Assembly (NCBI RefSeq): GCF_018336915.1
Contig: NZ_CP064923.1
Span: 5,550,001 to 5,582,000 of the forward strand
Source of the DNA: Acaryochloris marina S15
Lineage (GTDB): Bacteria; Cyanobacteriota; Cyanobacteriia; Thermosynechococcales; Thermosynechococcaceae
DNA: 32,000 nucleotides
Direction: 5' to 3'
In this document: positions 1 to 27,928 of the stretch, in pieces
Layout: each line of letters begins with the position of its first letter
Numbering within the stretch: the stretch's first letter is position 1
Translations under genes and position numbers: made by a program
Notes under the pieces: model-generated
Databases searched by the model: none
Told to the model about the DNA's origin: nothing
The model's input: the letters and a program-made list of their open reading frames with translations, nothing else

Positions 1-1
1 T

Positions 2-205
2 GATACAGACCATCGAAAATGCAAAATCTATGCGGATCGACCTCAGTTTTGCCGGGTAGAGCCGAAATCCTTTCAACGCATGTATGGCGTCGATCCTGAG
101 GATTTGAGTGACTTTGCGATCGCATGTTGTCGCCAACAAATCGATGCCATTTACGGTGACCGCAGCTTAGAAAGCATCCGGTTTGAACGTGAGATCGGGT
201 TCTAG
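2..205 (+). CDS. C-terminal part of a YkgJ/UPF0153-like cysteine-cluster protein (5' end lies outside the window)
   Basis: Frame 2 is open from the window edge to TAG at 203-205 and reads ...DHRKCKIYADRPQFCRVEPKSFQRMYGVDPEDLSDFAIACCRQQIDAIYGDRSLESIRFEREIGF*. The C-K-I-Y-x-x-R-P-x-x-C-R pattern is typical of this family. It is absent from the ORF track because it has no start codon in the window. Confidence 0.5.
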   Translation, partial: DTDHRKCKIYADRPQFCRVEPKSFQRMYGVDPEDLSDFAIACCRQQIDAIYGDRSLESIRFEREIGF

Positions 206-223
206 CTCCCCCTTCCAGGCATA

Positions 224-640
224 ATGGGGCTAGTCAACTGCGATGTGAAGGTAGTCGCAGGTCCATTTTTGTTTAGGCTTACCGTGAGTGATATCAATTC
301 AGTCCCTGCTAATCATCAGGCTTCAAAACCAACGAATACTCAACAACCTGACCCCAGCAAAGGGTTCAGCAAGGAATTTGGGCTAGCCTTTGTCACGGTC
401 TTCCTAGCAGAACTAGGAGATAAAACTCAGTTGAGTACGCTATTGATGACTGCAGAGTCTCAATCGCCCTGGATTATTTTTTTGGGTGCTGCTGCTGCCT
501 TGATCACAACTAGCCTATTCGGGGTGATCATTGGCCAGTGGCTCGCTCGTCGGGTGTCAGCAGCGACACTCAATACCGTGACCGGTGCCAGCTTGTTGTT
601 CATTGCGGTCTTGCTGATTTGGGATACGGTACACCTCTAG
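224..640 (+). CDS. UPF0016 (TMEM165/GDT1/PAM71/Mnx) family cation transporter, single-repeat half 1
   Basis: It carries the signature E-x-G-D-K-T motif (FLAELGDKTQLSTL) followed by hydrophobic helices. A ~50-aa polar N-terminal extension makes the true start uncertain. It lies 19 nt upstream of a second single-repeat gene. Confidence 0.8.
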   Translation: MGLVNCDVKVVAGPFLFRLTVSDINSVPANHQASKPTNTQQPDPSKGFSKEFGLAFVTVFLAELGDKTQLSTLLMTAESQSPWIIFLGAAAALITTSLFGVIIGQWLARRVSAATLNTVTGASLLFIAVLLIWDTVHL

Positions 641-659
641 AACTCAGGAGCCAAGGCGA

Positions 660-947
660 ATGGATTGGAAGTTATTAGGGATCACTTTTGTCGTCGTGTT
701 TCTAGCGGAACTGGGCGATAAAAGTCAGTTGGCAGCCATTACTCTCAGCGGAAATTGCCAACATCCTCGGGCCATTTTTTTAGGCACATCCTCGGCACTT
801 ATCTTTGCCAGTTTGTTAGGTGTGTTGTTAGGAGAAGGGGTTGGCCAGTTGCTACCCACACAGCTTATGAAAGCAATTGCAGCCATTGGCTTTGCTCTCT
901 TAGGCATCTCGTTTTTATGGTCTCCGGCTGAAGCTGAAGCGGAATAA
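660..947 (+). CDS. UPF0016 (TMEM165/GDT1/PAM71/Mnx) family cation transporter, single-repeat half 2
   Basis: FLAELGDKSQLAAI motif and three hydrophobic segments in 95 aa. It is adjacent to and co-oriented with half 1. Confidence 0.85.
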   Translation: MDWKLLGITFVVVFLAELGDKSQLAAITLSGNCQHPRAIFLGTSSALIFASLLGVLLGEGVGQLLPTQLMKAIAAIGFALLGISFLWSPAEAEAE

Positions 948-974
948 TATCAACTCTCTGGTGGTTTGAAATAA

Positions 975-1508
975 ATGGCACCCTCAAAAACCAATCTCAC
1001 CACACTCAAACAACATCTCAAGCAAGCCTCAAAAGAGGAACTCACCGATGAGATTAGTGAGCTGTTTAAAACGTTTAAGTCCGTCAAAGAATATTATCAA
1101 CTCAAACTCAGCCCCGAAACTGAGCAGTATGTAGGGGAAAACTACAAACAAACCATCGAGCATGAATTTTTCCCGGCGCGGGGCTTTGGCAAAGCCCGAC
1201 TGTCAGTGGCCCGCAAAGCGGTGAATGACTACAAGAAAGTCTGCCGTGATCCCGCTGCTTTAGTGGACATGATGCTGTTCTACGTGGAACAGGGGGTTAA
1301 GTTTACCGATGCCTATGGCGATATTGATGAGCCCTTTTATAACAGCATGGAGAGCATGTTTGAGTCAGCCACTAAAGCCATTGCTAAATATGGCTTACAG
1401 GGTGTGGCAGAACGGCGATGTCGCACAATTGTGCAAGACACCTCACAAACGGGTTGGGGGTTTCACGATGCGCTTCGTGAGATATATCAAGCAACTTTCA
1501 GCAAATAG
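975..1508 (+). CDS. Hypothetical soluble protein (resembles the DUF6155 family from memory)
   Basis: 177-aa ORF with an ATG start and balanced composition. The motifs EFFPARGFGKARLSVARKAV and YGDIDEPFYNSMESMFE look conserved. It is preferred over the overlapping ORF at 1309-1650. Confidence 0.6.
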   Translation: MAPSKTNLTTLKQHLKQASKEELTDEISELFKTFKSVKEYYQLKLSPETEQYVGENYKQTIEHEFFPARGFGKARLSVARKAVNDYKKVCRDPAALVDMMLFYVEQGVKFTDAYGDIDEPFYNSMESMFESATKAIAKYGLQGVAERRCRTIVQDTSQTGWGFHDALREIYQATFSK

Positions 1509-1550
1509 AAGCCCAAACATGGTTCATTCCTTGTTTGTTAGTTCTGAGAA

Positions 1551-1790
1551 CTATGCCGACTGCTCAAAGTATTCTTCGGTCGTTTCTACCTGGAGAACCT
1601 CGCAGGCAATTTTATCGACCAGCAGGGCTGTAGAAAACTCACTGGAATAGACCTCTAAAATTGCTTGAGCCTGACAATCAAATAGAATTCGCTGCTGCTG
1701 AAAAACCACCTTTTCAAAATACCAATTCTGAATATTGGAGATGCGAATGATCTCAAGAAAAGGGGTTTGGTTGACATAGCTACACAGCAT
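1551..1790 (-). CDS. Hypothetical small protein (79 aa)
   Basis: The only support is an ORF in a lower-GC stretch, last in a co-oriented minus-strand series (nuclease, 1992-2342, this ORF). No motif was recognised. Confidence 0.3.
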   Translation of the reverse strand: MLCSYVNQTPFLEIIRISNIQNWYFEKVVFQQQRILFDCQAQAILEVYSSEFSTALLVDKIACEVLQVETTEEYFEQSA

Positions 1791-1991
1791 TGAATCAACA
1801 GCCTTATTTCAAATGGGTTTTAACTACTCAAACAGAAGCGCTTTGGGGACATTCTTCAACGATTAGGTATAGATCTATGAAAAGTGCAATAGATCTCACA
1901 GCAGACATCAGACTTCTCACTCGCCATCACTTTTGGCAGTAAAAACAGATTGTCAAGGTTCCTATCATATTCAGCCCCCATATACTTTTGA

Positions 1992-2342
1992 TTAACGGCT
2001 AAAGGTACTTTTGTAGACTCCTTTAAGCTGCTCATAATCTTGATTAAAACCAGATTTACGCAAAACTGCTAATCGTTTTTCTAGAGCAACTCTTGCATCA
2101 TCTCGGCTGATACTATCGATTTCTAAACTCAAATTAGACGAAGTCACGAGAAAAAAAAGTCTTTTGGCATACAAACTTGCAAATAGTGCACTTTGCGCAT
2201 CAATAACGCATAAATTCACCAGTAGGCCAAACACTGGATGAGATAAATAAGTTTCACCAACAACAGAGCTTGTGTCAGTAGGAAATACATTTTGGGAATG
2301 CTCTTGACTCACATTTTCCAAATGGTCCGAATAGCTAGACAT
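1992..2342 (-). CDS. Hypothetical protein (116 aa)
   Basis: The track ORF 1992-2606 has an implausible Cys/Arg-rich N-terminal half. The internal ATG at 2342 (MSSYSDHLENVSQ...) gives a compositionally normal 116-aa protein. No family was recognised. Confidence 0.4.
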   Translation of the reverse strand: MSSYSDHLENVSQEHSQNVFPTDTSSVVGETYLSHPVFGLLVNLCVIDAQSALFASLYAKRLFFLVTSSNLSLEIDSISRDDARVALEKRLAVLRKSGFNQDYEQLKGVYKSTFSR

Positions 2343-2581
2343 AGCGGTGTACCTAATAAGAGGTAAATGCCTAAGGCTTGTAGCCCATTGACATTGTGTA
2401 CATTGAGTTCGGGCAAATGAAAAATTTGGATTATTAGTGTGGTGGCATCCTAAGCTTTTGGGCACCACACTTCTGCATCTAAAGTTACGGATATATCGAA
2501 GACTGAAGTTAGAGGCATCATGATACCGTGACAAACTCACCCTAGCCCCAAGACAACTGCTACGGAAATCCGTACCTCTTC

Positions 2582-3370
2582 TCAACTGGCGGCCTGATAC
2601 GGGCAAAATCCTTGTTTACCAAACCCACAATAGGACTCACAGCGTTTATTCTGCCCCGGACGTTGTTCGACCCACTCGCCTTTTTTATGGGTTGTCATCC
2701 AGTCCTGAGCTGTGGCTTCCGAGTGGCATACTTTGAGGGCTGATTGGCGGCCTTTTTTCATCACGGCATAGGTGGTTGGGGTTGCCCAACGTTCTTCCGG
2801 TGAGCACATTGAAGGTGGCGTATCACCTTGAGCCGCTTGGTGGAGCTGGATGCGATCTCGCATATAATCCAAAGACTCAGCCTCAGACCATAAGGGCACC
2901 TCAATCACTTCCACAGGTTTTAAGCCATCTCTTTCATGGCGTGGCCCCCAATCGCGAAGCAGGGCCACAATTTGCAGCTTCTTTATTGTTGAAAGATGGG
3001 GAATCCCTGAGCCATCAATGGCGTTTTCCAACAAAAATCGATAGACATTCAGCTGTCGATCCCATTCCACTTTGCCCTCGGTCTTGGCAGATTTCACGGC
3101 CCATGAACTGGTGAATTTGTAATCCTGCAACAGGCCATCAGCGGTCACCACCAAATCCATATGACCCGAAATCCGAAAGCCATCCACCTCAGCAATAGCC
3201 TCCGTTTCTACATGCTCTTCCTCTGCTGCAAACTCTTCCAAAATCGAATGCATCAGGGTGCCATACAGGGGCCACAGTCGTTCTGATATATCTTCTTCTA
3301 GCTGATCACTGTATTGACGTCTCAACCAGGCAATTAGCGGCGCATCGATCAACTGGGTACAAGATAGATC
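2582..3370 (-). pseudogene. Cas4-like PD-(D/E)XK nuclease with a C-terminal Cys cluster: main body, separated from its first 29 codons by an IS insertion
   Basis: Nuclease core motif GHMDLVV...LLQDYKFTS (D...D-x-K). Cysteines in MCSPEE and CESYCGFGKQGFCPY suggest a Cas4/AddB-type Fe-S cluster. The reading frame stays open up to 3370 (DLSCTQLIDAPL...), where it meets the IS end and an in-frame TAG (complement of 3371-3373). It continues in frame with 5142-5228 once the IS and one TSD copy are removed. Confidence 0.8.
3363..3370. repeat. Target-site duplication GATAGATC (left copy)
   Basis: The identical 8-mer lies in direct orientation at 5134-5141, immediately outside the IS terminal inverted repeats. 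Confidence 0.8.
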
Positions 3371-5133
3371 CTACATTCAGCAGGCTAGCTAGCAGAGCAG
3401 ATAATATTTTTTACAGCCCTTCCCAAGGAACGGCAAGATAAGTTGCTGCCTGCTGTTGAGCTTGATGAGATGCTTGGCACCATCAAGCCAAACTAAATGG
3501 ACGGCCTGAAAGCATTGGAGAATCCAACGTAACGTAGGTTTCATAGTTTGTTTCCCCTTCTGATTAGGGAGAGTTGTTTGTACTTGTTCTAGTGCATTTC
3601 TTAACTGTCGTTGTCCTAAGCTGTAGACCATCAAACACAAGGCCATGATCATGGCTAAGGCAGCGATACGCCGAGGTGTCTTCAGGAAAACACTAGAGGC
3701 AAAGAAGAGTGGATCTTTGATAAAGCGAAAGCCTCCTTCACACGCCTGCTGGTTCTTATACTCGCGCAGAATATCATCATTGCTCCATTGCTCTTGTTCC
3801 AAGAGATTGGTGGCTAAGATGAAACGACCTGCTTGCCGCCGATAGCGTTCGATGACTGGCTCATTGAGGGTTAAGGTAGCCTCAATAGAATAGGTGTAGT
3901 GAGTCACAACCGTTGCTTTTGTCGGTCGTCCAGCCTTTGAATAATGAGGTTTTTTGTGGATTTTGAGATCGTCAAGGGTGTGATACCTGAGGATTTTGCC
4001 AAAATCTTGGGCTGCAGCTAAAGCATCTGCAGGGCACAAGAAGGTCTGTTTGCAGAGGGTTTTAAGTGCAGTAGTTTTTTGGCTAAACGCCTGATCAATC
4101 CGCTTTTGCACTTGTTTGAGTCCAGAGTCTCTGCGAGCTTTACTTTCAACCACCAGCCACCGTTGTTGAATCTCTCCATAGGTACTACATACTTCGACAA
4201 AGCTATAGCCGTTGAGAGCACTGGGGTGAAACTGTGAACCCGGCAGCCCTTGTAATAAGTCTTGGGCTGCCGTTGAACTTGCTGGAACTCGGCTAATCCA
4301 AGATGTACTTCCTAATGCTTGCAGATTGTCGGCACTGTAGAGGGCACTATCAGCAACAATCACCTCTGGCTGTTGCTGACTCCACTGTTGCTTAAATTCA
4401 TGGATGATAGGCACAAACGTACTTTTGTCCGCATCATTACCGTTGCCCACTTGTAAAAATAAAGGAATACCCCCGTCCCCACTCACCAGTAGGTTCAATA
4501 CAAACTGCTTGAGATCACGACGATTGTCCCGTGAGTAGCCGTAGGTGATTTTCACGGGTATCGGCTCCTCTGATTCAGCCAGTGCAGGGGAGGGGGACTC
4601 AGGTGCAGAGGGGGATTCGTCTGACGCCTCAACCTGTGGTTTATCTAAGTATTGCCCCTCAACACTAAGGCTTGTCGCATCTAGATGCGCACACCTTAGA
4701 GCTACATCGAATTTCTGAACGACTGCCATTGCCACATGGATAAATATCTGGGTCACACCATAGGCATAGAGCTTGTCGAGGACTCGACCGATACGGGTAT
4801 CGTTGAGGTGCTCTGGCAGTACACCTTGACCGAGTAAGTGCTCGGTTGCTTTGCTTTCGAAAAACTCACTAAATAAGTACAATGGAGCACTCAAAAAGCC
4901 CATACCATTTAGAATCAGGGCTTTGACAACTTGACCACAACTAACATTCTCTTGCTCGTGAGTACCTAATAATCGATCCACTATTTCGACAATGCCGATC
5001 TCATCGACGATACCGGCAATAATACCGAGATGGTCAATATCCTGAACGTCTATCTCTTGAGGTGAATACATGGACTTGCGTTGAGAGACAACCTCAAAAT
5101 TATCCCTTGATGGTTAGTACCTGCTGAATGTCG
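3371..5133 (-). mobile_element. IS1634-family (IS4 superfamily) insertion sequence, ~1763 bp, apparently intact
   Basis: Terminal inverted repeats are CTACATTCAGCAGG (3371-3384) and the reverse complement of 5120-5133 (CGACATTCAGCAGG), matching 13/14. A subterminal GATAAT(A)TTTT match sits 16 nt further in at both ends. There is a single 560-aa transposase ORF and perfect 8-bp flanking direct repeats. Confidence 0.85.
3389..5071 (-). CDS. IS1634-family DDE transposase
   Basis: The 560-aa ORF has an N-terminus (IDHLGIIAGIVDEIGIVEIVD...GMGFLSAPLYLF) typical of the DUF4277 + DDE(IS4) architecture of IS1634-group transposases. It fills the space between the IRs. Confidence 0.85.
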   Translation of the reverse strand: MYSPQEIDVQDIDHLGIIAGIVDEIGIVEIVDRLLGTHEQENVSCGQVVKALILNGMGFLSAPLYLFSEFFESKATEHLLGQGVLPEHLNDTRIGRVLDKLYAYGVTQIFIHVAMAVVQKFDVALRCAHLDATSLSVEGQYLDKPQVEASDESPSAPESPSPALAESEEPIPVKITYGYSRDNRRDLKQFVLNLLVSGDGGIPLFLQVGNGNDADKSTFVPIIHEFKQQWSQQQPEVIVADSALYSADNLQALGSTSWISRVPASSTAAQDLLQGLPGSQFHPSALNGYSFVEVCSTYGEIQQRWLVVESKARRDSGLKQVQKRIDQAFSQKTTALKTLCKQTFLCPADALAAAQDFGKILRYHTLDDLKIHKKPHYSKAGRPTKATVVTHYTYSIEATLTLNEPVIERYRRQAGRFILATNLLEQEQWSNDDILREYKNQQACEGGFRFIKDPLFFASSVFLKTPRRIAALAMIMALCLMVYSLGQRQLRNALEQVQTTLPNQKGKQTMKPTLRWILQCFQAVHLVWLDGAKHLIKLNSRQQLILPFLGKGCKKYYLLC

Positions 5134-5228
5134 GATAGATCTGCCTTCCCCACAGAATGATGAGCATTTTGCCACTCCACAGCCCGATATAAGGGCATGG
5201 GCAAATTCAACTTGTTGGTGAGTTTCAT
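5134..5228 (-). pseudogene. 5' fragment of the PD-(D/E)XK nuclease gene (29 codons + TSD copy), orphaned by the IS
   Basis: Read on the minus strand from the ATG at 5228: MKLTNKLNLPMPLYRAVEWQNAHHSVGKA, then GATCTATC (the TSD). Joining to 3362 and below gives ...GKADLSCTQLIDAPLIAWL..., an uninterrupted 291-aa ORF. Confidence 0.8.
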
Positions 5229-5354
5229 TTAATAGGTATAAGAATGTTAGGTGTATTGCGTGAAGGCAAATCGCCACTATTGTAAGGTTGAAAGTCGGAT
5301 AGACGAATCGGTCAACGACGACCGAACCAAAGCCTGAGCATCTCAGCAAGGTAA

Positions 5355-6173
5355 GTGATGACGATGAAAATTAGTGAACTGATTGAGTGGTTTGAAAGCT
5401 GGGCTAACCCGTCCTGGCAGGAGAAGTGGGATAACTGTGGTTGGCAGATTGAACCGGGGATTTTGGATCAACCGGCTCGGGTACTGGTCTGTTTAACGCC
5501 AACCTTAGCGGTGATGGAAGAAGCGATCGCACTTCAGCAGCAGAACACACCTATTAATTTAATTTTTGCCCATCATCCCTTAATTTTTGGCCCTCTGAAG
5601 TCAGTACAAAAGGGCGATTCCATTGGCGATATGGTTCGCCTCTCCATCACTCATCAGATTGGGGTTTACAGTGCCCATACCAATTTTGATCAAGTCGCAG
5701 ATGGCACAGCAGATGTATTGTCTCAACTCTTAGAGCTGCAAAATGCCGAACCCGTAGAACCAACCCAAGATGGCCTGGGATACGGTCGCGTCGGCAATCT
5801 TAAACCCGCTCTAACACTGCAACAGCTCCTCGCCAACATTCAAGCTACTCTGAAGCCTACCGATTTATTGGTATCACCCACAGCAGATCGACAGCAGTCT
5901 ATTGAACGGGTCGCAGTACTCGGAGGGTCTGGAGCTAGCTATATCTCAGCCGTGAGCCAAACAGGTGCCCAGGCATATCTGACTTCGGACTGTAAGTTTC
6001 ATCAATTTCAAGAGAGTCGCGATCGCAACCTGATTCTGATTGATGCTGGACATTATGCGACAGAGCGGCCTGCCTGTGAACGCTTAGCCCAAAAATTTAC
6101 CAACAAGGGAGTGGAATGGGCGCAACTGAGCCAGTCAGACGAAGATTTCCGCAATTTTTGGGCTGCCAACTAG
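5355..6173 (+). CDS. Nif3-like dinuclear metal centre protein (YbgI/GTP cyclohydrolase 1 type 2 homologue)
   Basis: Motifs LIFAHHPLIF, AHTNFD and IDAGHYATERP. The length (~270 aa) is typical. The start could be 5355, 5358 or 5364. Confidence 0.85.
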   Translation: MMTMKISELIEWFESWANPSWQEKWDNCGWQIEPGILDQPARVLVCLTPTLAVMEEAIALQQQNTPINLIFAHHPLIFGPLKSVQKGDSIGDMVRLSITHQIGVYSAHTNFDQVADGTADVLSQLLELQNAEPVEPTQDGLGYGRVGNLKPALTLQQLLANIQATLKPTDLLVSPTADRQQSIERVAVLGGSGASYISAVSQTGAQAYLTSDCKFHQFQESRDRNLILIDAGHYATERPACERLAQKFTNKGVEWAQLSQSDEDFRNFWAAN

Positions 6174-6206
6174 AAGGACCAACAATACAACTGCCACAGT
6201 TTTGAG

Positions 6207-6662
6207 ATGAAACAGGTTTGCCAAATTTATAGGCAACTCCCTACAAAACTCACCAACAGCATTGAGATAGTCGGTATCGTCATTGGGCTGTTGATGATGG
6301 TGATACTGGCAAACATAGCTGCAGATGGTTCGGTATTGGCCTTGATCATCTTGTCTCTCGTTACCCTGGCCCTTATCAGCGCTCAGCCTCTCCAGCATTG
6401 GCAGAAACGACGACATGCCCAAAAGCAGTACAAACTGCGTCAGAAAAGGGTTGATCAGCTACTGGCAGGACGATCCCGAGCAGACATTTTGAAGGCATCA
6501 CCTTTCAGTTATGGTCGTTGGCCCGATGGTGACGACACTTACGTAATTGATGATCGGAGGATAGGTAAGATTATTCACCAAGTCTGGAGTCCAGCAGAAG
6601 CAGAGTTATGGATCTTAGAGCAAACGTTACATGAAGAAGAAAACGGCGACGAAAGAAAATAA
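6207..6662 (+). CDS. Hypothetical membrane protein (two predicted TM helices + charged C-terminal domain)
   Basis: 151-aa ORF with the hydrophobic stretch IVGIVIGLLMMVILANIAADGSVLALIILSLVTLALISA followed by a basic region. It is preferred over the antisense ORF 6135-6422. No family was recognised. Confidence 0.5.
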   Translation: MKQVCQIYRQLPTKLTNSIEIVGIVIGLLMMVILANIAADGSVLALIILSLVTLALISAQPLQHWQKRRHAQKQYKLRQKRVDQLLAGRSRADILKASPFSYGRWPDGDDTYVIDDRRIGKIIHQVWSPAEAELWILEQTLHEEENGDERK

Positions 6663-6997
6663 GCACACCACGCCTATACAGTTGATTCAACGTTGCTAAT
6701 ACCAATAAGCATCAAAAAGTGTAATTTTGATTTGCTATGAAACTTTGCCAACAAAGGGTTTTACAAATTTTATGATTACGCTTTTAGGCTCAAATTGGTA
6801 TAACCTCAACCTTGATGGATTCAACCCTAGTTCCTTCAATTGGGCTATCACTGCCATACCGTCATCAGAGATAGGCTCAATCAACTTACCCATACATTCA
6901 AGTTTGTTGACCCCGCTTCTGAGCTAAGCTAGTAATGCTTATACACCGCTCGACGACATATATCGGTCGTCGTTTATTGATTTAAAGGAGACAGCAC

Positions 6998-8305
6998 GTG
7001 GTCAGGATTCTCCGGTTGTCAGAGATGACATCTGAAGAACTCGCTTCCATCAAACGACGGGCCGAGTTAGATATTGAACAGGCGCTAGCTGTCGCCAAAG
7101 AAGTCATTGACGAGATTCGCGCTGACGGTGATCAGGGCGTGATCAAATACGTCCGCAAATTTGATTTTCCCGGTGCCACAACCGAAAATCTGAAAGTGAC
7201 CGAAGCCGAATTTGCCGTTGCCCGCGAGCAAGTCGAGCCCGAAATCAAAGCCGCGATTGAGCAAGCCTATCGCAACATCAAAGAAGTGCACGAACGGCAA
7301 ATGCCAGAAGAAGTGCAGCTTGCCGAAATCGATGGCGGCGTCTTTGCTGGGGAAAAAGTCACCCCTATTGCCAGTGCTGGACTATATGTGCCTCGGGGTA
7401 AAGGCTCCTTTCCCTCAGTGATGCTGATGCTCAGCGTGCCAGCGGTCGTAGCCGGAGTGGAAAGAATTGTTGTCTGTACACCACCGGACAAAAACGGCAC
7501 CGTAGAGCCTGCCTCTCTTGTCGCAGCTGAACTGGCAGGCGTGAAAGATGTATACAAATTAGGCGGCATCCAAGCAATCGCAGGCATGGCGATCGGTACT
7601 GACACAGTACCCAAAGTCGATAAAATCACTGGACCTTGCAACGTCTATGGCTCCGCCGCCAAGCGCCTGCTCTACGGCACCGTTGATGTTGGCTTACCCG
7701 CTGGTCCTAGTGAATCGATTATTCTTACGGACGAAACCACTGACCCCCGGATTGCAGCCTTAGATCTGCTGGTAGAAGCAGAGCATGGTCCCGACTCGGC
7801 AGGCTTACTGGTTACCCACAGCGAAGACCTAGCCAAGGCCGCGTCCAAACATGCAGACGACTATATGCAGCAGTTGCCTGAATGGCGCAAAAACTTCTGT
7901 CAGAAGGGCCTGTCTTCTTATGGCGGTATTATTCTCACCTCCAGCCTGGAAGAATCGATTGATTTCCTCAACGATTATGCCCCTGAGCATTTAGAAGTTC
8001 TGGTACAAGACCCCCTCAGCGTTCTCGGCAAAATCAAGAATGCTGGTGAAATTCTCCTCGGTCCCTATACCCCCATTCCAACGGCCAACTACTGCATTGG
8101 CGTCAACGCCATTCTGCCTACGGGAGGCTTTGCTCGCTCCTACTCGGCGGTATCGGTATACGACTTTCTCAAGCGCACTGGCATTGGTTATTTAACAAAA
8201 GAAGGCTTTGATCGCTTGGGCCATACGGCTCAAACCTTGGCGGAGCATGAAGACTTCCCGGCCCATGCCATGGCCATTCGTGAGCGTAAGAACCTGCTCC
8301 CGTAA
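6998..8305 (+). CDS. hisD: Histidinol dehydrogenase
   Basis: Full-length 435-aa match to the HisD pattern (YVPRGKGSFPS, KITGPCNVY, EAEHGPDS, APEHLE). The GTG start is preceded by AAGGAG 7 nt upstream. Confidence 0.95.
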   Translation: MVRILRLSEMTSEELASIKRRAELDIEQALAVAKEVIDEIRADGDQGVIKYVRKFDFPGATTENLKVTEAEFAVAREQVEPEIKAAIEQAYRNIKEVHERQMPEEVQLAEIDGGVFAGEKVTPIASAGLYVPRGKGSFPSVMLMLSVPAVVAGVERIVVCTPPDKNGTVEPASLVAAELAGVKDVYKLGGIQAIAGMAIGTDTVPKVDKITGPCNVYGSAAKRLLYGTVDVGLPAGPSESIILTDETTDPRIAALDLLVEAEHGPDSAGLLVTHSEDLAKAASKHADDYMQQLPEWRKNFCQKGLSSYGGIILTSSLEESIDFLNDYAPEHLEVLVQDPLSVLGKIKNAGEILLGPYTPIPTANYCIGVNAILPTGGFARSYSAVSVYDFLKRTGIGYLTKEGFDRLGHTAQTLAEHEDFPAHAMAIRERKNLLP

Positions 8306-8324
8306 GGGGCGGTGGAGGGTTACC

Positions 8325-9548
8325 GTGTCCGATCAACTCCTGTATCAGATTCAGACGTTACAGTTTTCTGATCAGGCAGCGGCGAATGCCCTGCTGAAGG
8401 ACTTCGTCAATGACAATTTCCCTTTCAATGTGGAGCAGGTACAGGTACGTCCTTCGGCGGTATCCCTTAACTCCATTAATGGATTTCTGCATACCGTGGA
8501 AGGAGACAAACTGTTCTTCAAAACCCACGTTGAACCCCAAAGCCTGATTCATGAGTATTACAACTCCACGATCATGGCAGAGGCAGGCTATCCCATTATT
8601 CAGCCCATTTTTAGCTCAACAGAATGGGGTAAGCAGCTGCTGGTCTATGAGTTTTTTGAATCCCCATCTCTGTTTGATGTGGCTCGTCAGATTGAAACGG
8701 GACAGCGAGGCGGAGCTGACCAGATTATTGCCCTGCAGGAAAAAGCAGACCAAGACCTGTGGGCCATCTATCAGCAAACCCTGCAGCCTTTATCAGCCGA
8801 AGACCATGCCGAAGTCCCCATTCACCAACTGTTTGTCCATCGCCTAGTCGGAGGACGATATCACGAGTTTTACGCAGGCAAAGAAGTCAAGCTACCAGAA
8901 CACACCCTGAACTTTGACCCACTCGCTCAACTAACCTGGCAGATTAATGGCATACCTTACCAAGACACCCTAGCTGACATTATTCAAACAGCCAGTCAAA
9001 AGCTTGTCCCAACCTCTACTCCCTCTGTTGTCGGTCATGGTGATGCTCATAATGGCAATGTGTTCGTAGATGAAGACGCAGAAACCCTGATCTATTTTGA
9101 TCCTGCCTTTGCCGGACGGCATTCACCCTTTTTAGATCTAACGAAGCCGATCTTCCATAACGTATTTGCGATTTGGCTGTATTTCCCCCAAGAGATCGCC
9201 AAAGACCTATCCATTAACTTAGAGATCTCAGCAGACCAGATCCAAGTGGATCATGATTTTCGACCATCAGCTATACGTCTAAGATTCCTGCAATCAAAGC
9301 TCATGCATGTACTCCAGCCCTTGCTTGAGCGCCTAAAAGCTTCTGGTCAACTCCCTGAAACCTGGCGACAGGAACTCAAGTTGGCACTGTTTTGCTGTCC
9401 TTTTTTAACCATGAACCTCTGCGATACCCAACGCTTTCCGCCAGAAATTACGCTACTGGGCTTATCCCTAGCAGTAGAAATGGGCAGTTCTAGCACCTCC
9501 CAGAACCAGAGCATTTTAGATACTGCCCTGGACCAACTCAACATATAA
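8325..9548 (+). CDS. APH/choline-kinase-like phosphotransferase family protein
   Basis: Catalytic-loop motif HGDAHNGNVF followed by IYFDPAF (a DFG-like D). The track ORF starts at 8208 inside hisD. The GTG at 8325 is in frame, follows a GGAGGG Shine-Dalgarno at 8314-8319, and lies 19 nt after the hisD stop. Confidence 0.75.
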   Translation: MSDQLLYQIQTLQFSDQAAANALLKDFVNDNFPFNVEQVQVRPSAVSLNSINGFLHTVEGDKLFFKTHVEPQSLIHEYYNSTIMAEAGYPIIQPIFSSTEWGKQLLVYEFFESPSLFDVARQIETGQRGGADQIIALQEKADQDLWAIYQQTLQPLSAEDHAEVPIHQLFVHRLVGGRYHEFYAGKEVKLPEHTLNFDPLAQLTWQINGIPYQDTLADIIQTASQKLVPTSTPSVVGHGDAHNGNVFVDEDAETLIYFDPAFAGRHSPFLDLTKPIFHNVFAIWLYFPQEIAKDLSINLEISADQIQVDHDFRPSAIRLRFLQSKLMHVLQPLLERLKASGQLPETWRQELKLALFCCPFLTMNLCDTQRFPPEITLLGLSLAVEMGSSSTSQNQSILDTALDQLNI

Positions 9549-9592
9549 GCCCTAAGTTAGGCTTCAATTGGCCGTCAATTCGGAATCAACCC

Positions 9593-10150
9593 ATGCCGAA
9601 GTTTCCCAAGTTGCAGTGTAAGCGCGGCATTCTACGAATGGCAACAGAAGATGATATTGATGCCATCCTGAGGTATTTCATCGTTAATCAAGACCATTTA
9701 GCCCCCTTTGAGCCGATTAAACCGGTGGAGTTTTATACACCCAACTTTTGGCGGGTATTGATTCGCGATCGCACCCATGCATTCCTCAACGATCAAGGCA
9801 TCAAGTTCTTCCTGTTTGATCGGCACAATCCCCAGCAGATTATTGCGGCTATCAACTTCTCAAATGTAGTGCGAGGGGCATTTCAGTCCTGCACCTTAGG
9901 CTTTAGTATTGCCGACCAATATCAAGGTCAAGGCTATATGGCCGAGTCGATACCTGTTGCGATCGCATACCTCTTCTCTGACCTCAACTTGCACCGGATT
10001 ATGGCAGCCTATATGCCCCATAACCAACGTAGCGGCAGACTCCTCCGACGATTAGGCTTTCAACTGGAAGGATATGCCCCTAGATACCTCTGCATTAACG
10101 GGATATGGCAAGACCATATGCTCACTAGCCTCATCAACACTAATATTTAG
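9593..10150 (+). CDS. GNAT family N-acetyltransferase (RimJ/RimL-like)
   Basis: QGQGYMAES acetyl-CoA-binding-type motif, a RLGFQLEG tail and a length of 185 aa. Confidence 0.8.
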   Translation: MPKFPKLQCKRGILRMATEDDIDAILRYFIVNQDHLAPFEPIKPVEFYTPNFWRVLIRDRTHAFLNDQGIKFFLFDRHNPQQIIAAINFSNVVRGAFQSCTLGFSIADQYQGQGYMAESIPVAIAYLFSDLNLHRIMAAYMPHNQRSGRLLRRLGFQLEGYAPRYLCINGIWQDHMLTSLINTNI

Positions 10151-10230
10151 ATTTTATTTAGATCCGGCAGTCACCAAACCGAAAAGGACGTGGGCACAAT
10201 AAAGGTAGCTATTGTCATGGAAGTTCGACG

Positions 10231-10253
10231 GGGGGCGCAAGCCCCTTTTTTTT
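10231..10253 (+). terminator. Rho-independent terminator downstream of the GNAT gene
   Basis: GGGGC-GCAA-GCCCC hairpin (GNRA-type tetraloop) followed by eight T residues (10246-10253). Confidence 0.75.
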
Positions 10254-10288
10254 ATAGAATTAGACCATAAACACAACTGAAAATCTTG

Positions 10289-10357
10289 TGAAGTTATTTT
10301 GAAGCGTCAAGCTCTCTACAACAAATTTTATTCTTTTGAAAGTTCAAAATAACTTCA
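10289..10357. repeat. 15-bp perfect inverted repeat (TGAAGTTATTTTGAA / TTCAAAATAACTTCA) with a 39-nt spacer
   Basis: The arms lie at 10289-10303 and 10343-10357 in an AT-rich intergenic region. AAAATCTTG recurs nearby at 10280 and 10393. Confidence 0.6.
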
Positions 10358-10561
10358 ACTATCTCTCACGTAATTGAGATATTAGCCTTCACAAAATCTT
10401 GAGATTTTTCCTATCGTTTTGCTACACATGCGATAGAAACTACAGTTAGAAACCTTGGGATCTTTATCCTCAAAGTTTTAAACAATAATTATTTAATATT
10501 TACTACAGAAAAGATGTCTGTTTCCATAAGAAATGGGGCATTATCTAATCAATTAGTCTCC

Positions 10562-10592
10562 AAATAAAAACCCAGCACGGGGGGTGCTGGGT
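10562..10592 (-). terminator. Rho-independent terminator on the minus strand
   Basis: Perfect 9-bp stem ACCCAGCAC / GTGCTGGGT (10570-10578 / 10584-10592) with a 5-nt G loop. On the minus strand it is followed by TTTTTATTT (complement of 10562-10570). Confidence 0.6.
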
Positions 10593-10610
10593 CGATATGG
10601 GAGGTATTGG

Positions 10611-10652
10611 AACCCTCTGGATGAGTGAATGCATCGCATCCGAGGGTTTTTT
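10611..10652 (+). terminator. Rho-independent terminator on the plus strand
   Basis: Stem AACCCTC(T)GGATG ... CATCCGAGGGTT (10611-10623 / 10637-10648) has 12 bp with one bulge and runs into TTTTTT (10647-10652). Confidence 0.6.
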
Positions 10653-10928
10653 ATGGCATGAATTAACTAGTTGTTTATACTCTAACCAATCTTCCAAACC
10701 CAGACCTGAGAAGAACTACGGAATTATTATTTCTGTTACCAAAAAACCTCCAGTAAATACACCCACATTTACTTTCGCTCTATCGAATAGAAGTCATAAC
10801 AGCCATAACAGAAACGGAACTTTAGACAGAAATTTATAATATTCACAACAACTTCATAGGGCAATAAGTGCACGCCCCTCCTGATACGCTGAAATGAATC
10901 CATTCAAAGTTTTTATGGCAGAGCAGAT

Positions 10929-12356
10929 ATGGAAACGCAAACCGATTCCAATCCGAGCAACTTAGATATTCAATTCAATTTTTGGCAACAGTGGTATCCA
11001 GTCGCTCCCTTAGAAGACTTAGATCCACAGCGCCCCACTGCCATTACGTTATTAGGGCAACATTTTGTTATTTGGCAACCCAAGCATTCTGACCAATATC
11101 TAGTATTTCAAGATCTGTGCTCCCACCGCTTAGCTCCCCTCAGTGAAGGTCGCATTGACGAGCAAACCGGTCAGCTCATGTGTAGCTATCACGGTTGGCA
11201 ATTTGATCAAGAAGGTCTTTGCACCCACATTCCTCAAGCTGAAGCAGTCACCCCTAAGCAGGGACAGCTGTACTGCGTTACTGCTGTCCCCACTCAAGCG
11301 CAAAGTGGACTGTTGTGGGTATGGCCAGATCCAGACACCCGAGAAATTGCTGCCACACAACCTTTGCCTCTCTCCCCCCTCATTAATGCTGACCAAAACT
11401 TTGTCTGGTCCTCTGTCATGAGAGATTTGGCCTATGATTGGCAAACGTTAGTTGAAAACGTCTCTGACCCGAGTCACGTTCCCTTTGCCCATCATGGTGT
11501 CCAAGGCAATCGCAACCAAGCCGCTCCTATCCCTATGGAGGTTCTGACCTCCACCCCAGAGCTAATTGAAGTCTTGACCACGGGGAAGTTCGCCACCACA
11601 ATCACCTTTCAACCGCCCTGCCGCTTGGAATATCAATTTTCTATCGGTGAAGGGAAACAAGCAGCTATGGTCACCTACTGTATTCCCATTGCCCCAGGTC
11701 GATCTCGCATCGTAGCCCTGTTTGCACGCAATTTTGCCACAGGTCTCATGAAAGTGCTTCCTCGCTGGGTAGAGCATATGAAAAACCGCAATCCAGTGCT
11801 GGATGGCGACATGATTTTGTTACGTGCCCAAGAAAAACAGCTTCTTCAGCACACCCAAACCCAAAATTGGCAAACCGCCTACAAGCTCCCCACCAGTGCG
11901 GATCGTCTCGTGATTGAATATCGGCGATGGTTCGAAAAGTATAGTCACGGACAAATTCCTTGGGGATCTGCTGATGGGCAGATTTTCGTTGCTTCCAACA
12001 ACTATGACTATTTACAACCTCTAGGAGAGAAGCGACCTCAAATTCTGGATCGATATCATCAACACACCTTGATCTGTAGTAGCTGTCGACGAGCGTTGAG
12101 CAGAATCAAGCTATTGCAAAAGATTTTGGTAGCTGTCTTTGCGATCGCAATCAGTGGAACAGCAATCTTGCCTGATTCTTTACTCCCTTCCCGCCATAAG
12201 ATTGTGCATCTAAATATCATTGAAATTCTTATTTATCAAGAATCTGAATACCCAATCTTATGCTGGGATGGGAGTAAGAGTGACGTGGGGGATTCCCATG
12301 GTTCTCATAGGGCTTCTAGGGTTAGGGATCTATTATGGGTTGAAATATTGGCTTAA
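10929..12356 (+). CDS. PaO/Tic55-type Rieske [2Fe-2S] non-haem-iron oxygenase; the 3' end appears frame-disrupted
   Basis: Rieske motif CSHRLAPLSEG...CSYHGWQF, mononuclear iron region DPSHVPFAHHG and the PaO-family C-terminal CxxC (CSSCRRAL). After residue ~418 the translation becomes atypical (HKIVHLNIIEILIYQESEYPILCWDG...), while the +1 frame carries a TM helix and a ...KYWLKPRFYFVDYIHAHH tail. Confidence 0.85.
   Translation: METQTDSNPSNLDIQFNFWQQWYPVAPLEDLDPQRPTAITLLGQHFVIWQPKHSDQYLVFQDLCSHRLAPLSEGRIDEQTGQLMCSYHGWQFDQEGLCTHIPQAEAVTPKQGQLYCVTAVPTQAQSGLLWVWPDPDTREIAATQPLPLSPLINADQNFVWSSVMRDLAYDWQTLVENVSDPSHVPFAHHGVQGNRNQAAPIPMEVLTSTPELIEVLTTGKFATTITFQPPCRLEYQFSIGEGKQAAMVTYCIPIAPGRSRIVALFARNFATGLMKVLPRWVEHMKNRNPVLDGDMILLRAQEKQLLQHTQTQNWQTAYKLPTSADRLVIEYRRWFEKYSHGQIPWGSADGQIFVASNNYDYLQPLGEKRPQILDRYHQHTLICSSCRRALSRIKLLQKILVAVFAIAISGTAILPDSLLPSRHKIVHLNIIEILIYQESEYPILCWDGSKSDVGDSHGSHRASRVRDLLWVEILA
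12183..12274. repeat. AT-rich palindromic (MITE-like) element inside the 3' end of the Rieske gene
   Basis: Imperfect 22-nt inverted repeats: CTCCCTTCCCGCCATAAGATTG (12183-12204) against the reverse complement of 12253-12274 (CTCCCATCCCAGCATAAGATTG). They match 19/22, including a perfect 10-mer CATAAGATTG. An inner ATTCTT/AAGAAT pair is also present. The exact boundaries are uncertain. Confidence 0.55.
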
Positions 12357-26216: not shown

Positions 26217-26879
26217 ATGAAACTTAAAAATCAGCAGATGCTACCGCTCGACGAGCAACTCCGTCAACTGGTCATAGAAGCCCGCCAATATCCCTCAGGC
26301 CATTTGAAACGAAAGCAATGTTTGACGCAGATTGTGCGACTGATTGAACAATCTCGTAAGCTCTGGCATGAACATACTCCTTACTATGAAGATGCCCTGC
26401 AGCAAACCTGGGTTTATTTTTGCCAAAATATTTGTGAAGCCGGTACTGGCGAACAATATGATCCCGACCGTAGTAGTGTCGTTACCTGGTTAAACCGATA
26501 TCTGAAATGGCGCTTACAAGACTTTCGCATTAACAAACAAAAGCACCTCGCAAGATATACCTCTAAAGCTCCTAGCGCCATCAACAAAAACCAAGACGTC
26601 ACGGATAATCTCGCTGCTCCTCCAGATACTCCCCCAATTTTGGAAACAACCCGTCATTGGGTGGAAACCGACCCCTCAGGTGAGTTAAGAAACGTTCATA
26701 TTCAAAACCGACCGGATGTCACCTGCCAAGTTTTACTATTAAGGCGTCTGCCACCGGAGCAAGGATGGGAAAAGGTTTCTGAAGAATTTGGCTTACCCAT
26801 TTCTACCCTGAGTAGTTTTTACCAACGACAATGTATGACCCGCTTGCGTAATTTTGGTCTGTCACAAGGATATCTATAA
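26217..26879 (+). CDS. Sigma-70-family-like protein (divergent region 2 + region 4 HTH)
   Basis: The region-2-like segment is YEDALQQTWVYFCQNI...SSVVTWLNRYLKWRLQDF. The region-4-like HTH is WEKVSEEFGLPISTLSSFYQRQCMTRLRNF. It is the first gene of a four-gene co-oriented cluster. Confidence 0.7.
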   Translation: MKLKNQQMLPLDEQLRQLVIEARQYPSGHLKRKQCLTQIVRLIEQSRKLWHEHTPYYEDALQQTWVYFCQNICEAGTGEQYDPDRSSVVTWLNRYLKWRLQDFRINKQKHLARYTSKAPSAINKNQDVTDNLAAPPDTPPILETTRHWVETDPSGELRNVHIQNRPDVTCQVLLLRRLPPEQGWEKVSEEFGLPISTLSSFYQRQCMTRLRNFGLSQGYL

Positions 26880-26902
26880 TAGAAGTTCCTGATTTTGACT
26901 CC

Positions 26903-27874
26903 ATGCTTCCCTTGATGAGCGATTCTTTAGCCTTACCCATTACCCTAACCGCGAGGCAAATAGCCCAAGGCTTTGGGCAACAGCAATCCACACCTGAGAA
27001 ATGCCAGCAAGTCTATCTCAACACCCTAGCGGTCCTTGCTGTTAAAGAGTATCTGGCATTGATGGAAATCCCCTGCAATCTGGAAGCTAGCGATAGCTGG
27101 AATCCAGTAGTGCGACTCTGTGCAGACGTTGCCGATCTCCTCATTCCGGGTATGGGCAGTTTAGAATGTCGCCCAATTTTACCTGGCACGCCTACCTGTC
27201 TCTTGCCCCCTGAAGTCTGGTCGGATCGCGTCGGTTATTTAGTTGTCGTCATTGATGATCAACAGCGGAGGGCTCGCATCCTAGGATTTACGCCCACTGC
27301 TCAAGCCGGTCAAATCGCCATAGAGCACTTACAACCCCTCGAATCCCTATTGGCTCATATTAGTGAATTCATGTTGGTAGACACCAAACCACCAACATTC
27401 GTTCAAACTGATCTGGGTCAATGGCTACAAGGTATCTTTAATCAAAGTTGGCAAGTAGTTGAAGACCTATTACAACCCTCAACCCGAGAGCCAGCATTTC
27501 ACTTTAGAAGTGCAGCCACAACGTCAACCGTTGAGCTAGATGACGATGCCGTTCAAATTAAGCGGGCCAAATTAGTCAAATTCAAAAATGATGCAGAAGA
27601 AATTCCCCTCGTCTTGATCATGAATCTTCTGCAAACTGAAACATATAGCCAGCGGATGCTCTGTGTTCAGCTCCGACCCGCAGGTCAATGCACATCATTA
27701 CCCGCTAATTTAGTGCTTAGGGTGCTGGACAACCAGCACAATACATTTTTAGAAGCCCAATCACGACAAGCGGACAACTACTTACAGCTTGAGTTCAGCG
27801 GATTACCAGGAGAACAGTTCCATCTCGATCTAGAGCAAGGCAACCACATCCTAACTGAAACATTTATTATTTAG
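26903..27874 (+). CDS. DUF1822 family protein (cyanobacteria-restricted, function unknown)
   Basis: The N-terminal LPITLTARQIAQGFGQQQSTPEKCQQVYLNTLAVLAVKEYLALMEIP is the characteristic DUF1822 opening. It starts 23 nt after the sigma-like gene. Confidence 0.75.
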   Translation: MLPLMSDSLALPITLTARQIAQGFGQQQSTPEKCQQVYLNTLAVLAVKEYLALMEIPCNLEASDSWNPVVRLCADVADLLIPGMGSLECRPILPGTPTCLLPPEVWSDRVGYLVVVIDDQQRRARILGFTPTAQAGQIAIEHLQPLESLLAHISEFMLVDTKPPTFVQTDLGQWLQGIFNQSWQVVEDLLQPSTREPAFHFRSAATTSTVELDDDAVQIKRAKLVKFKNDAEEIPLVLIMNLLQTETYSQRMLCVQLRPAGQCTSLPANLVLRVLDNQHNTFLEAQSRQADNYLQLEFSGLPGEQFHLDLEQGNHILTETFII

Positions 27875-27928
27875 AAATTTTTGCCCTGGCTGCATAGAAA
27901 GGAGATGCCTCTATAAAGAGAACAAGCC

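Follow-up and report, generated by a model that had tools for sequence, protein, structure and literature searches.

Organization of the locus

The stretch of DNA analyzed here (hereafter, the window) comprises 32,000 nucleotides from Acaryochloris marina S15. Within it, a nuclease gene on the minus strand is present as two fragments separated by an insertion sequence (IS), with pipX on its downstream side and a NIF3-type gene on its upstream side. The features of the locus are as follows.

1992..2342, minus strand: pipX, 116 aa, intact (PF12058, 4.7e-32; NF045912 match)
2582..3369, minus strand: 3' part of the split nuclease gene, codons ~30-291 plus stop, with an in-frame TAG (3371-3373) before the fragment
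3364..3369, strandless: target-site duplication, copy 1, ATAGAT (one copy in the empty sites of L006, L041-L050, L001, and L014)
3370..5134, minus strand (transposase orientation): IS1634-family insertion sequence, 1765 bp, with ends as in six other copies
3370..3384, plus strand: terminal inverted repeat on the transposase 3' side, CCTACATTCAGCAGG, a 14/15 match with the other end
3389..5071, minus strand: intact 560-aa transposase gene, DUF4277 plus DDE_Tnp_1
5120..5134, minus strand: terminal inverted repeat on the transposase 5' side, CCGACATTCAGCAGG as read on the minus strand
5135..5140, strandless: target-site duplication, copy 2, ATAGAT
5135..5228, minus strand: 5' part of the split nuclease gene, covering codons 1 to ~31, which now runs into the IS and ends at a TAA (5100-5102)
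5355..6173, plus strand: NIF3/DUF34 gene (PF01784, 1.4e-65), divergent from the nuclease gene and the upstream limit of the conserved locus

The pipX gene, whose product is a nitrogen-regulation co-activator, lies 239 nt downstream of the nuclease stop codon on the same strand, and throughout Acaryochloris the nuclease gene is found directly upstream of pipX and co-oriented with it. The wider neighborhood (hisD, NIF3, nuclease, pipX, DUF1830, GDT1, ycf12, and recJ) is likewise conserved in the genus, its gene order being constant from strains that are 99% identical to species that are ~84% identical at the nucleotide level. An identical PipX protein is encoded on 22 contigs of related strains.

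The insertion sequence and its ends

The single ORF of the element encodes a transposase that scored 391.1 bits (residues 9-550) against the NCBIfam equivalog model for the IS1634 family (NF033559), well past the cut-off of 100, and that gave Pfam profile matches to DUF4277 in its N-terminal part (PF14104; residues 8-115, 1e-43) and to DDE_Tnp_1 (PF01609; residues 178-481, 6.8e-9). IS1634 elements are IS4-related DDE elements of 1500-2000 bp, with ends of the form C-----YT and AT-rich duplications of 5-6 bp (De Palmenaer et al. 2008, PMC2266710). The window element, with one ORF, a length of 1765 bp, C-----YT ends, and a 6-bp AT-rich duplication, differs from these in nothing of substance, and its transposition chemistry is predicted. 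Members of the family further have a modified YREK motif, usually without the arginine, in the C1 region. The 14-nt terminal repeats of the window element, CTACATTCAGCAGG and CGACATTCAGCAGG, agree except at one position (13/14), and the terminal-repeat motif occurs at only two sites in the 32-kb window, both of which are IS ends (0.13 sites expected by chance). The family assignment, the 13/14 terminal repeats, and the intact transposase ORF, all of which had been read from the bare sequence in the original prediction, were thereby borne out.

The element is multi-copy. Its transposase is 100% identical to P0121, a protein recorded in A. marina S15 under at least four GenBank accessions, and their 90% cluster contains further full-length variants and fragments. 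A scan of the genome collection with the transposase returned no relatives, leaving the IS absent among GTDB representatives under the patterns used, and an exact-protein look-up of the window transposase and P0121 in the contig index gave no match.

The two sides of the element are bordered by a perfect 8-bp direct repeat, GATAGATC (3363-3370 and 5134-5141), which had been taken in full as the target-site duplication of a 1763-bp IS at 3371-5133. The repeat itself is present as described; the assignment of its outermost bases, however, changes when other copies of the IS are compared. Six such copies (L035-L040) have ends identical to those in the window, including the outer C and G, and lie in unrelated flanks. 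Because the ends stay the same while the flanks differ, the repeat represents target DNA rather than a part of the IS, as the original prediction had proposed; and because the six copies carry the extra C and G at their ends, the IS extends over 3370-5134 (1765 bp) and the duplication is 6 bp. The base outside CGACATTC is always C and that outside GAATGTAG is always G, in all six copies as well as in the contigs, whatever the flank, and collapsed-repeat contigs of the IS measure 1765-1767 bp. Further, the pMB06 copy is bordered by a perfect 6-bp duplication (TTCCAT), as is the NIES-2412 copy (ATATAA), so that under an 8-bp model both would have to be mismatched, and precisely at the two outermost bases; in one metagenomic copy (L036), the flanking duplication is absent. 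The ends CCTACATT and CCGACATT agree with the family consensus C-----YT, which fits CCTACATT but not CTACATTC (PMC2266710). Longer and variable duplications, of 8-514 bp, have been reported for IS1634 and IS1549 (PMC2266710), and the 8-bp repeat in the window is perfect, but in light of the six other copies we rejected an 8-bp duplication as very unlikely. The comparison of copies thus shows the outer C and G to be part of the IS, and the target duplication to be ATAGAT.

The interrupted gene and its empty sites

On the minus strand, an ATG at 5228 opens MKLTNKLNLPMPLYRAVEWQNAHHSVGKA, a stretch of 29 codons that leads into the right-hand repeat. Joining the fragments in silico, by removal of 3371-5133 and one repeat copy, restored, as had been predicted, an unbroken ORF of 291 codons; the IS sits after codon ~31. 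The rebuilt ORF is the same under the 6-bp and the 8-bp definitions. In the present state, the N-terminal ORF (5100-5228) encodes 42 aa, of which 32 are native and 10 are IS-encoded before the TAA, and an exact look-up of this truncated product found no match. On the other side, the in-frame TAG that the original prediction had placed at the IS end was found at 3371-3373, and the two ORFs that it had named, one of 99 aa across the junction (5050-5349) and one TTG-initiated remnant (2582-3352), do appear in the program-made list of ORFs.

When searched as one protein of 291 aa, the rebuilt ORF matched 454 proteins at E<=1e-3, and its homologues align end to end across the junction at up to 90-91% identity; the best full-length one is 90% identical (P0001, 291 aa), followed by 83%, 73%, 67%, and lower. 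At the nucleotide level, the gene is intact in ten close Acaryochloris assemblies (97.9-99.7% identity within the gene); in all ten of these strains, which share an identical PipX, the 876-nt ORF has no stops and contains the single-copy site GGCAGATCTATCTTGTACC. The gene is also intact and syntenic, with a single-copy empty site, in A. marina MBIC11017 (NC_009925.1) and in the more distant L001 and L002. The empty sites of all compared strains consist of GGCAGATCTATCTTGTACC or a close variant, in the order NIF3, nuclease, pipX, and DUF1830. In contig L006, which is 99.05% identical to the left flank of the window and 96.8% identical to the right flank, the two flank alignments share exactly 8 bases (6980-6987 of L006). 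Two of the tests that the original prediction had named, the comparisons with full-length homologues and with related genomes, thus show that the 29 codons and the body form a single gene, and the third, on the ends of other IS copies, also came out in its favor.

A RecB/Cas4-fold nuclease of a phage-related family

The 3' fragment contains a PD-(D/E)XK core, which in a 17-sequence alignment comprises Asp101, Asp112-x-Lys114, and Gln135-x3-Tyr139; Asp101, Asp112, Lys114, and Gln135 are invariant, and Tyr139 is at least 90% conserved. Four cysteines (218, 273, 277, and 285) are also invariant in this alignment, with a spacing of C-x54-C-x3-C-x7-C, and the nuclease core and C-terminal Cys cluster noted earlier are therefore both present. 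The protein matches PF12705 (PDDEXK_1) with 27.5 bits (residues 82-146; cut-off 22) and, in two stretches, the phage family phrog_2139 "exonuclease" with an E-value of 4.4e-32 (112 bits; best stretch, residues 83-278), a label that is an annotation name for a putative activity. An AF2 model of the nuclease (pLDDT 90.7) found its best PDB fold match in 4ic1, SSO0001 (E 1.4e-8, TMt 0.62-0.66, ~225 aligned columns), followed by human EXO5 and RecE; its best viral fold match was a PD-(D/E)XK protein of a Delftia phage (TMq 0.75). The solved structures are linked to the nuclease by fold comparison only, and a PDB sequence-profile search with the nuclease alignment returned chance-level matches only (e.g., SDHAF2, E ~0.02).

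SSO0001, the closest structural match, is the Cas4 of S. solfataricus; the PDB title gives SSO0001 only. The window nuclease shares with it the RecB-type D, D-x-K, and Q-x3-Y motifs, and its four conserved cysteines would be consistent with an Fe-S cluster. The canonical Cas4 Cys triad, however, is C-x2-C-x5-C, whereas in the window nuclease the first conserved cysteine (Cys218) follows the catalytic core instead of being N-terminal, and an alpha/beta insert of ~50 residues separates it from the other three; the protein is also ~90 residues longer. It scored 15.8 bits against Cas4 TIGR00372 (cut-off 65), as well as against the PADLOC Cas4 model, and we found no cas domains in the scanned ORFs or the syntenic annotation and no CRISPR-like array in the 32 kb. 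A CRISPR-associated Cas4 was rejected on these grounds; of the "Cas4-like" label in the original prediction, the fold and the motifs stand, but not membership of the Cas4 family or a cas context. The nuclease domains of human EXO5, RecE, and AddB-AdnAB have the same RecB-like fold, with significant fold matches, and several of these proteins are Fe-S-bearing 5' end-processing enzymes, but their identity to the window nuclease is 11-14%, their TM-scores are low (0.35-0.46), and their domain contexts differ. By homology, we infer that the intact protein would be a metal-dependent exonuclease that processes DNA ends, probably with a Cys-bound Fe-S cluster.

Further close counterparts are the PHROG 2139 phage exonucleases (e.g., of Pelagibacter phage Baldr, Leptospira phage LE3/LE4, and Delftia phage RG-2014), which show 31-36% identity to the nuclease over the full length, the full-length structural match given above, and the same invariant residues and Cys pattern. 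Unlike these, the gene in Acaryochloris stands alone at a syntenic chromosomal site, with no adjoining annealing protein or replication module. The gene might be read as having been left behind by a prophage or a different mobile island, since its family is mainly phage-borne (with full-length homologues in pelagiphage, Leptospira, Planktothrix, and Synechococcus phages), many of its relatives lie on contigs of 35-40 kb, and its distribution among genome representatives is patchy. However, the housekeeping neighborhood from hisD to recJ, with its order kept down to ~84% nucleotide identity, and a window with no phage genes led us to reject this reading as highly improbable. The resemblance to phage and recombination-type exonucleases noted in the original prediction holds for the family, but the gene itself is chromosomal and stably syntenic across Acaryochloris. 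We favor a nuclease that derives from, or is shared with, phage replication and recombination modules and that appears to have been kept as a host gene across Acaryochloris.

Authenticity and age of the insertion

We put at about 95% the probability that an IS1634-family element of 1765 bp transposed into codon ~31 of a chromosomal, single-copy Acaryochloris gene for a 291-aa RecB/Cas4-fold nuclease with four conserved cysteines, in a strain identical or nearly identical to that sequenced in SRR12447961; none of the results contradicts this core reading. A multi-copy IS breaks short-read assemblies and could, in principle, have been placed wrongly into an intact gene. The target, however, is duplicated exactly at both junctions, as real transposition predicts, and an independent short-read Logan contig (SRR12447961_661) contains the gene-IS junction, being 100% identical to window positions 1-3393 and ending 24 nt inside the IS. 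That it stops there is expected, because a multi-copy repeat should break a short-read assembly at this point. The HisD-side contig from the same run (L007) likewise matches the window at 100% identity, and we regard the likelihood of an assembly artefact as practically negligible.

The age of the event was judged from the comparison with sister strains and from the identity of the IS copies at the protein level. Since the sister strains are still intact at the locus, and since the IS is intact and currently multi-copy, the insertion appears evolutionarily recent, with a predicted date after the split from strains that are 98-99.7% identical at the locus; the perfect repeat, the intact transposase, and the empty sites of close strains agree with the recency put forward in the original prediction. 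The accompanying claim, that lesions beyond the insertion are absent, stands as far as stops and frameshifts are concerned, of which there are none, but not for missense changes: two of these, G80E and P216S, are private to the window allele and lie at sites that cyanobacterial homologues conserve, and none of its private changes is synonymous. Either decay has begun or the allele had been impaired before, and the counts are too small to choose. The missense changes would fit an older insertion, or a gene already in decay, in which the IS marks a dispensable pseudogene and is not the cause of the loss. Across 11 alleles there are ~22 nonsynonymous versus ~19 synonymous sites, and some changes affect family-invariant residues in other strains (E84K and R272H in L044; R223C in L050), which suggests only moderate constraint in the clade. 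Against such a reading, the rebuilt ORF differs from its closest intact counterpart by 3 of 876 nt (99.7% identity), the ORF is open in all ten close strains, the duplicated target shows no mismatch, and the intact transposase has identical counterparts in other copies. We consider an older insertion or earlier decay unlikely and retain a recent event.

Consequences and significance

In the proposed course of events, the DDE transposase would have made a 6-bp staggered cut in the AT-rich ATAGAT, with the target doubled on repair. The insertion leaves the nuclease gene in two parts, an N-terminal stub of 42 aa and a 3' body that has no start codon and follows an in-frame TAG. As this body lacks the invariant N-terminal residues Thr4, Asn5, Leu9, Pro10, Ala16, and Thr34, the nuclease is almost certainly null in this strain, as judged from the sequence. 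We infer that its loss is tolerated and that the strain represents a natural knockout.

A more far-reaching reading takes the nuclease, with its non-canonical Cys arrangement, to be a phage exonuclease domesticated for a role in the host, maybe co-transcribed with pipX, and holds that the IS, besides making it null, alters PipX expression through read-out from the co-oriented transposase gene or through polarity. We consider this combination quite unlikely. A consensus scan for promoters and terminators (1900-5450) gave counts not above the shuffled expectation and is uninformative on read-out into pipX, and a literature search on pipX-nuclease synteny and on IS1634 in Acaryochloris found nothing relevant.

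The disruption is an ordinary strain-specific gene knockout; it is ordinary biology and challenges no current idea. For annotation, the two fragments are to be recorded as one IS-disrupted pseudogene, with an IS of 1765 bp and a duplication of 6 bp. For an IS-rich genus, the locus adds one more datable, strain-specific transposition event. Beside the intact sister strains, it further offers a natural knockout of a Cas4-fold nuclease that is conserved but uncharacterized; the pairing could help to find the role of the nuclease and to see whether it has an effect on pipX expression.

Boundaries and copies of the inserted element

GATAGATC is present twice in the window (3363-3370 and 5134-5141), and the DNA between both repeats has CTACATTCAGCAGG at its start and the reverse complement of CGACATTCAGCAGG at its end (13/14 match); at up to two mismatches, the window contains this 14-mer terminal motif nowhere else, against 0.13 occurrences expected by chance. 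The original prediction had placed an IS1634-family element at 3371-5133, between 8-bp target duplications. Six other copies were compared, namely those on plasmid pMB06 of Acaryochloris sp. 'Moss Beach' (L035, 99.4% identical), in NIES-2412 (L040), in JGI metagenome 3300027509 at 625-2387 (L036, 98.3% identical), and in three collapsed-repeat contigs of 1765-1767 bp (L037-L039). On the transposase strand, all six carry a C directly before CGACATTC and a G directly after GAATGTAG, whatever their flank, and these outer bases therefore belong to the element, which speaks against an 8-bp duplication and a 1763-bp element. The corrected features are as follows.

3370-5134, IS of 1765 bp with terminal inverted repeats CCTACATTCAGCAGG and CCGACATTCAGCAGG (14/15)
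3389-5071, minus strand, transposase ORF of 560 aa, NCBIfam NF033559 'IS1634 family transposase' at 391 bits (cut-off 100)

With these ends, the target duplications are perfect and 6 bp long in the window (ATAGAT), in pMB06 (TTCCAT), and in NIES-2412 (ATATAA), and the apparent 8-bp repeat is due to a target that had G-ATAGAT-C at this place by chance. The predicted inverted repeats, flanking repeat, and intact transposase thus stand, with only the duplication length and the outer coordinates amended. In length, ends, and duplication, the element agrees with what has been published for IS1634-family members, namely 1500-2000 bp, C-----YT termini, and AT-rich duplications of 5-6 bp (De Palmenaer et al. 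2008, PMC2266710). The metagenomic copy L036 has no flanking target duplication (TTTTAA vs ATAAAT), possibly through recombination between copies or chimeric metagenome assembly.

The transposase also matches Pfam DUF4277 (1e-43) and DDE_Tnp_1 (7e-9) and is identical to the cluster representative P0121, an 'IS1634 family transposase' of Acaryochloris marina that is listed under at least four GenBank accessions and is also found on a 5.88-Mb contig. Another member of this cluster names A. marina S15 as its strain, and the 90% cluster also holds full-length variants and truncated fragments from S15, Acaryochloris sp. 'Moss Beach', and A. marina NIES-2412. The IS is therefore a multi-copy element, with activity in the genus that is current or ended only recently. 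P0245 (568 aa, UniRef n=4), an S15 variant in the P0121 cluster, is extended at its C-terminus by 8 residues (…LLCYRSTDKDP); those copies have therefore lost the usual stop codon, which lies 18 nt from the IS end, and translation in them would continue towards or beyond that end.

The interrupted gene and its empty site in relatives

On the minus strand, an ATG at 5228 opens 29 codons leading into the right repeat, and removal of 3371-5133 together with one repeat copy restores an uninterrupted 291-codon ORF (876 nt), which is unchanged whether the 8-bp or the 6-bp definition is used. As the locus now stands, the 5' piece continues for 10 codons into the IS, up to a TAA at 5100-5102 (product of 42 aa), and an in-frame TAG lies ahead of the 3' piece. 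All features described in the original prediction lie where it had put them, including two ORFs in the mechanical ORF list.

3371-3373, minus strand, in-frame TAG
5050-5349, spurious junction ORF of 99 aa
2582-3352, TTG-initiated remnant ORF

At E<=1e-3, 454 proteins are homologous to the rebuilt one, the best of which are 90% (P0001, 291 aa), 83%, and 73% identical, all at full length, and their alignment is gap-free through residues 25-40, junction included. At the loci encoding P0001 (L001 and L002) and a second homologue, P0002 (L005), the gene is intact, with a divergent NIF3 gene on one side and co-oriented pipX and DUF1830 genes on the other, as in the window; in the DNA alignment, each has a single GATCTATC (GATCTCTC in L005). 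L006, a locus reached via the window's exact HisD sequence, shares 99.05% identity with window 1-3370 and 96.8% with 5134-6161, and its two alignments share exactly 8 bases, i.e., a clean empty site. The uninterrupted site expected in sister strains, GGCAGATCTATCTTGTACC, was found in ten assemblies with the window's exact PipX, all of which contain an intact 876-nt ORF with no stops (97.9-99.7% nucleotide identity); the gene is also intact and syntenic in A. marina MBIC11017 (NC_009925.1). Calls of 281 aa in some assemblies reflect the caller picking a Met11 start, the upstream ATG being there in all. The predicted disruption thus withstood comparison with homologues across the junction, with the continuous gene in relatives, and with the ends of other IS copies.

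Reality, age, and consequences of the insertion

That the insertion is real in the source strain is supported by an independent short-read contig, SRR12447961_661 (L051), which carries the gene-IS junction and breaks inside the repeat, as a true multi-copy insertion would lead one to expect: it matches window 1-3393 at 100% identity and stops after 24 nt of the IS. A second contig of this run (L007) is 100% identical to window 6772-12209.

A recent event, as had been proposed, agrees with the perfect duplication, with an intact transposase identical to other copies, with the nearest intact allele (L047) differing from the rebuilt one at only 3/876 nt, and with the absence of the insertion from the 10 close strains. 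The accompanying claim of no further lesions holds for stop codons and frameshifts in the rebuilt ORF, but not for missense changes: among 11 alleles, the window's has two private substitutions, G80E and P216S, and no private synonymous change. Both positions are conserved among cyanobacterial homologues, and P216 lies two residues ahead of the invariant Cys218. This pattern fits relaxed selection after disruption, albeit in small numbers; other strains among the 11 alleles also carry missense changes at invariant positions, and the variable sites comprise roughly 22 nonsynonymous and 19 synonymous ones.

The DDE-transposase element went in through a 6-bp staggered target cut and split the nuclease gene. 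Since any 3' product would start at Leu36 (TTG) or later, without the invariant N-terminal residues, this strain is almost certainly null for the nuclease, whose loss appears to be tolerated. Downstream by 239 nt and co-oriented, pipX remains intact, with the sequence it has in sister strains. Its expression could in principle be altered by polarity or by transcripts that run out of the co-oriented transposase gene; a consensus scan of 1900-5450 for promoters and terminators gave counts not above shuffled expectation and is uninformative on this point.

Family and fold of the nuclease

The rebuilt nuclease matches Pfam PDDEXK_1 (27.5 bits, cut-off 22) and PHROG 2139 'exonuclease' (4e-32). Its invariant residues include H70, E84, D101, D112, K114, Q135, N137, C218, C273, C277, and C285, with Y139 conserved in at least 90%; the conserved residues comprise the RecB-type D, D-x-K, and Q-x3-Y motifs plus four cysteines. 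A confident AlphaFold2 model from a 17-sequence alignment (pLDDT 90.7, pTM 0.83) has as its best PDB match 4ic1, SSO0001 (E 1.4e-8, TMt 0.62-0.66), the Cas4 of S. solfataricus; human EXO5, RecE, and the nuclease domains of AdnAB, AddAB, and RecBCD come next. In a viral structure library, the best match is full-length, to a Delftia phage PD-(D/E)XK protein (TMq 0.75), ahead of phage 'Cas4-like' proteins and exonucleases, and tblastn located full-length homologues of 31-36% identity in Pelagibacter, Leptospira, Planktothrix, and Synechococcus phages.

The predicted label, a Cas4-like PD-(D/E)XK protein of phage or recombination type, is therefore fair for fold and family, but membership in Cas4 is ruled out: Cas4 models score 15.8 bits against a threshold of 65, and the similarity is one of fold only. 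Unlike in canonical Cas4, the first conserved Cys comes after the catalytic core. Between this Cys and the C-x3-C-x7-C triad lies an alpha/beta insert of roughly 50 residues (about 225-266), which is missing from one homologue, P0022. The window contains no cas genes or CRISPR arrays. We infer that the uninterrupted protein works as a metal-dependent exonuclease on DNA ends and probably carries an Fe-S cluster.

Distribution and neighboring features

In the set of species representatives, members of the cyanobacterial clade (>=56% identity) occur in several Acaryochloris, a Leptolyngbyaceae MAG, a Gloeobacterales MAG, and another cyanobacterial MAG, with more distant relatives scattered over phyla. 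Linkage to pipX was observed only in Acaryochloris, within which the nuclease gene is a stable, syntenic chromosomal gene. The Acaryochloris sp. CRU_2_0 MAG has two copies on separate contigs (L010 and L011, 77% and 79% identical to the query); on L011, a DUF6155 fragment and GDT1 follow directly, with no pipX or DUF1830 detected in between. In Acaryochloris sp. 'Moss Beach' (L041, CP071717.1), recJ at 8795-11240, a few genes from the nuclease locus, appears frameshifted: pieces of 606 and 254 aa lie in different frames, and alignment to L049 shows one gap, whereas the gene has 806-813 aa in the other strains. It could be a true pseudogene, or the long-read assembly could be in error here.

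Elsewhere in the window, a 92-bp element at 12183-12274, present there as a single copy, is missing from the otherwise 98-99% identical L006. With terminal inverted repeats CTCCCTTCCCGCCATAAGATTG and CTCCCATCCCAGCATAAGATTG (19/22) and a duplicated TA on its flanks, it resembles a MITE that has landed close to the 3' end of a 475-aa Rieske/PaO-like ORF (10929-12356), altering the C-terminus of that ORF. The stretch between NIF3 and hisD (6161-6896; ORF 6207-6662, 151 aa) does not align with L006 though both flanks do, and L007 also breaks within it, at 6772; the small ORFs in this stretch vary among related strains, which have one of 147-151 aa on one strand, one of 106 aa on the opposite strand, or one of 117-120 aa, none with a recorded Pfam hit. 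A three-ORF cluster at 26217-31051, unrelated to the insertion, encodes a 220-aa protein without a Pfam hit, a DUF1822 protein, and a 1040-aa CHAT/adenylate-guanylate cyclase/CHASE2 protein.

In summary, the disruption amounts to an ordinary knockout by an IS, specific to this strain, in a cyanobacterial genus rich in such elements; its main uses are in annotation and as a naturally occurring nuclease mutant.
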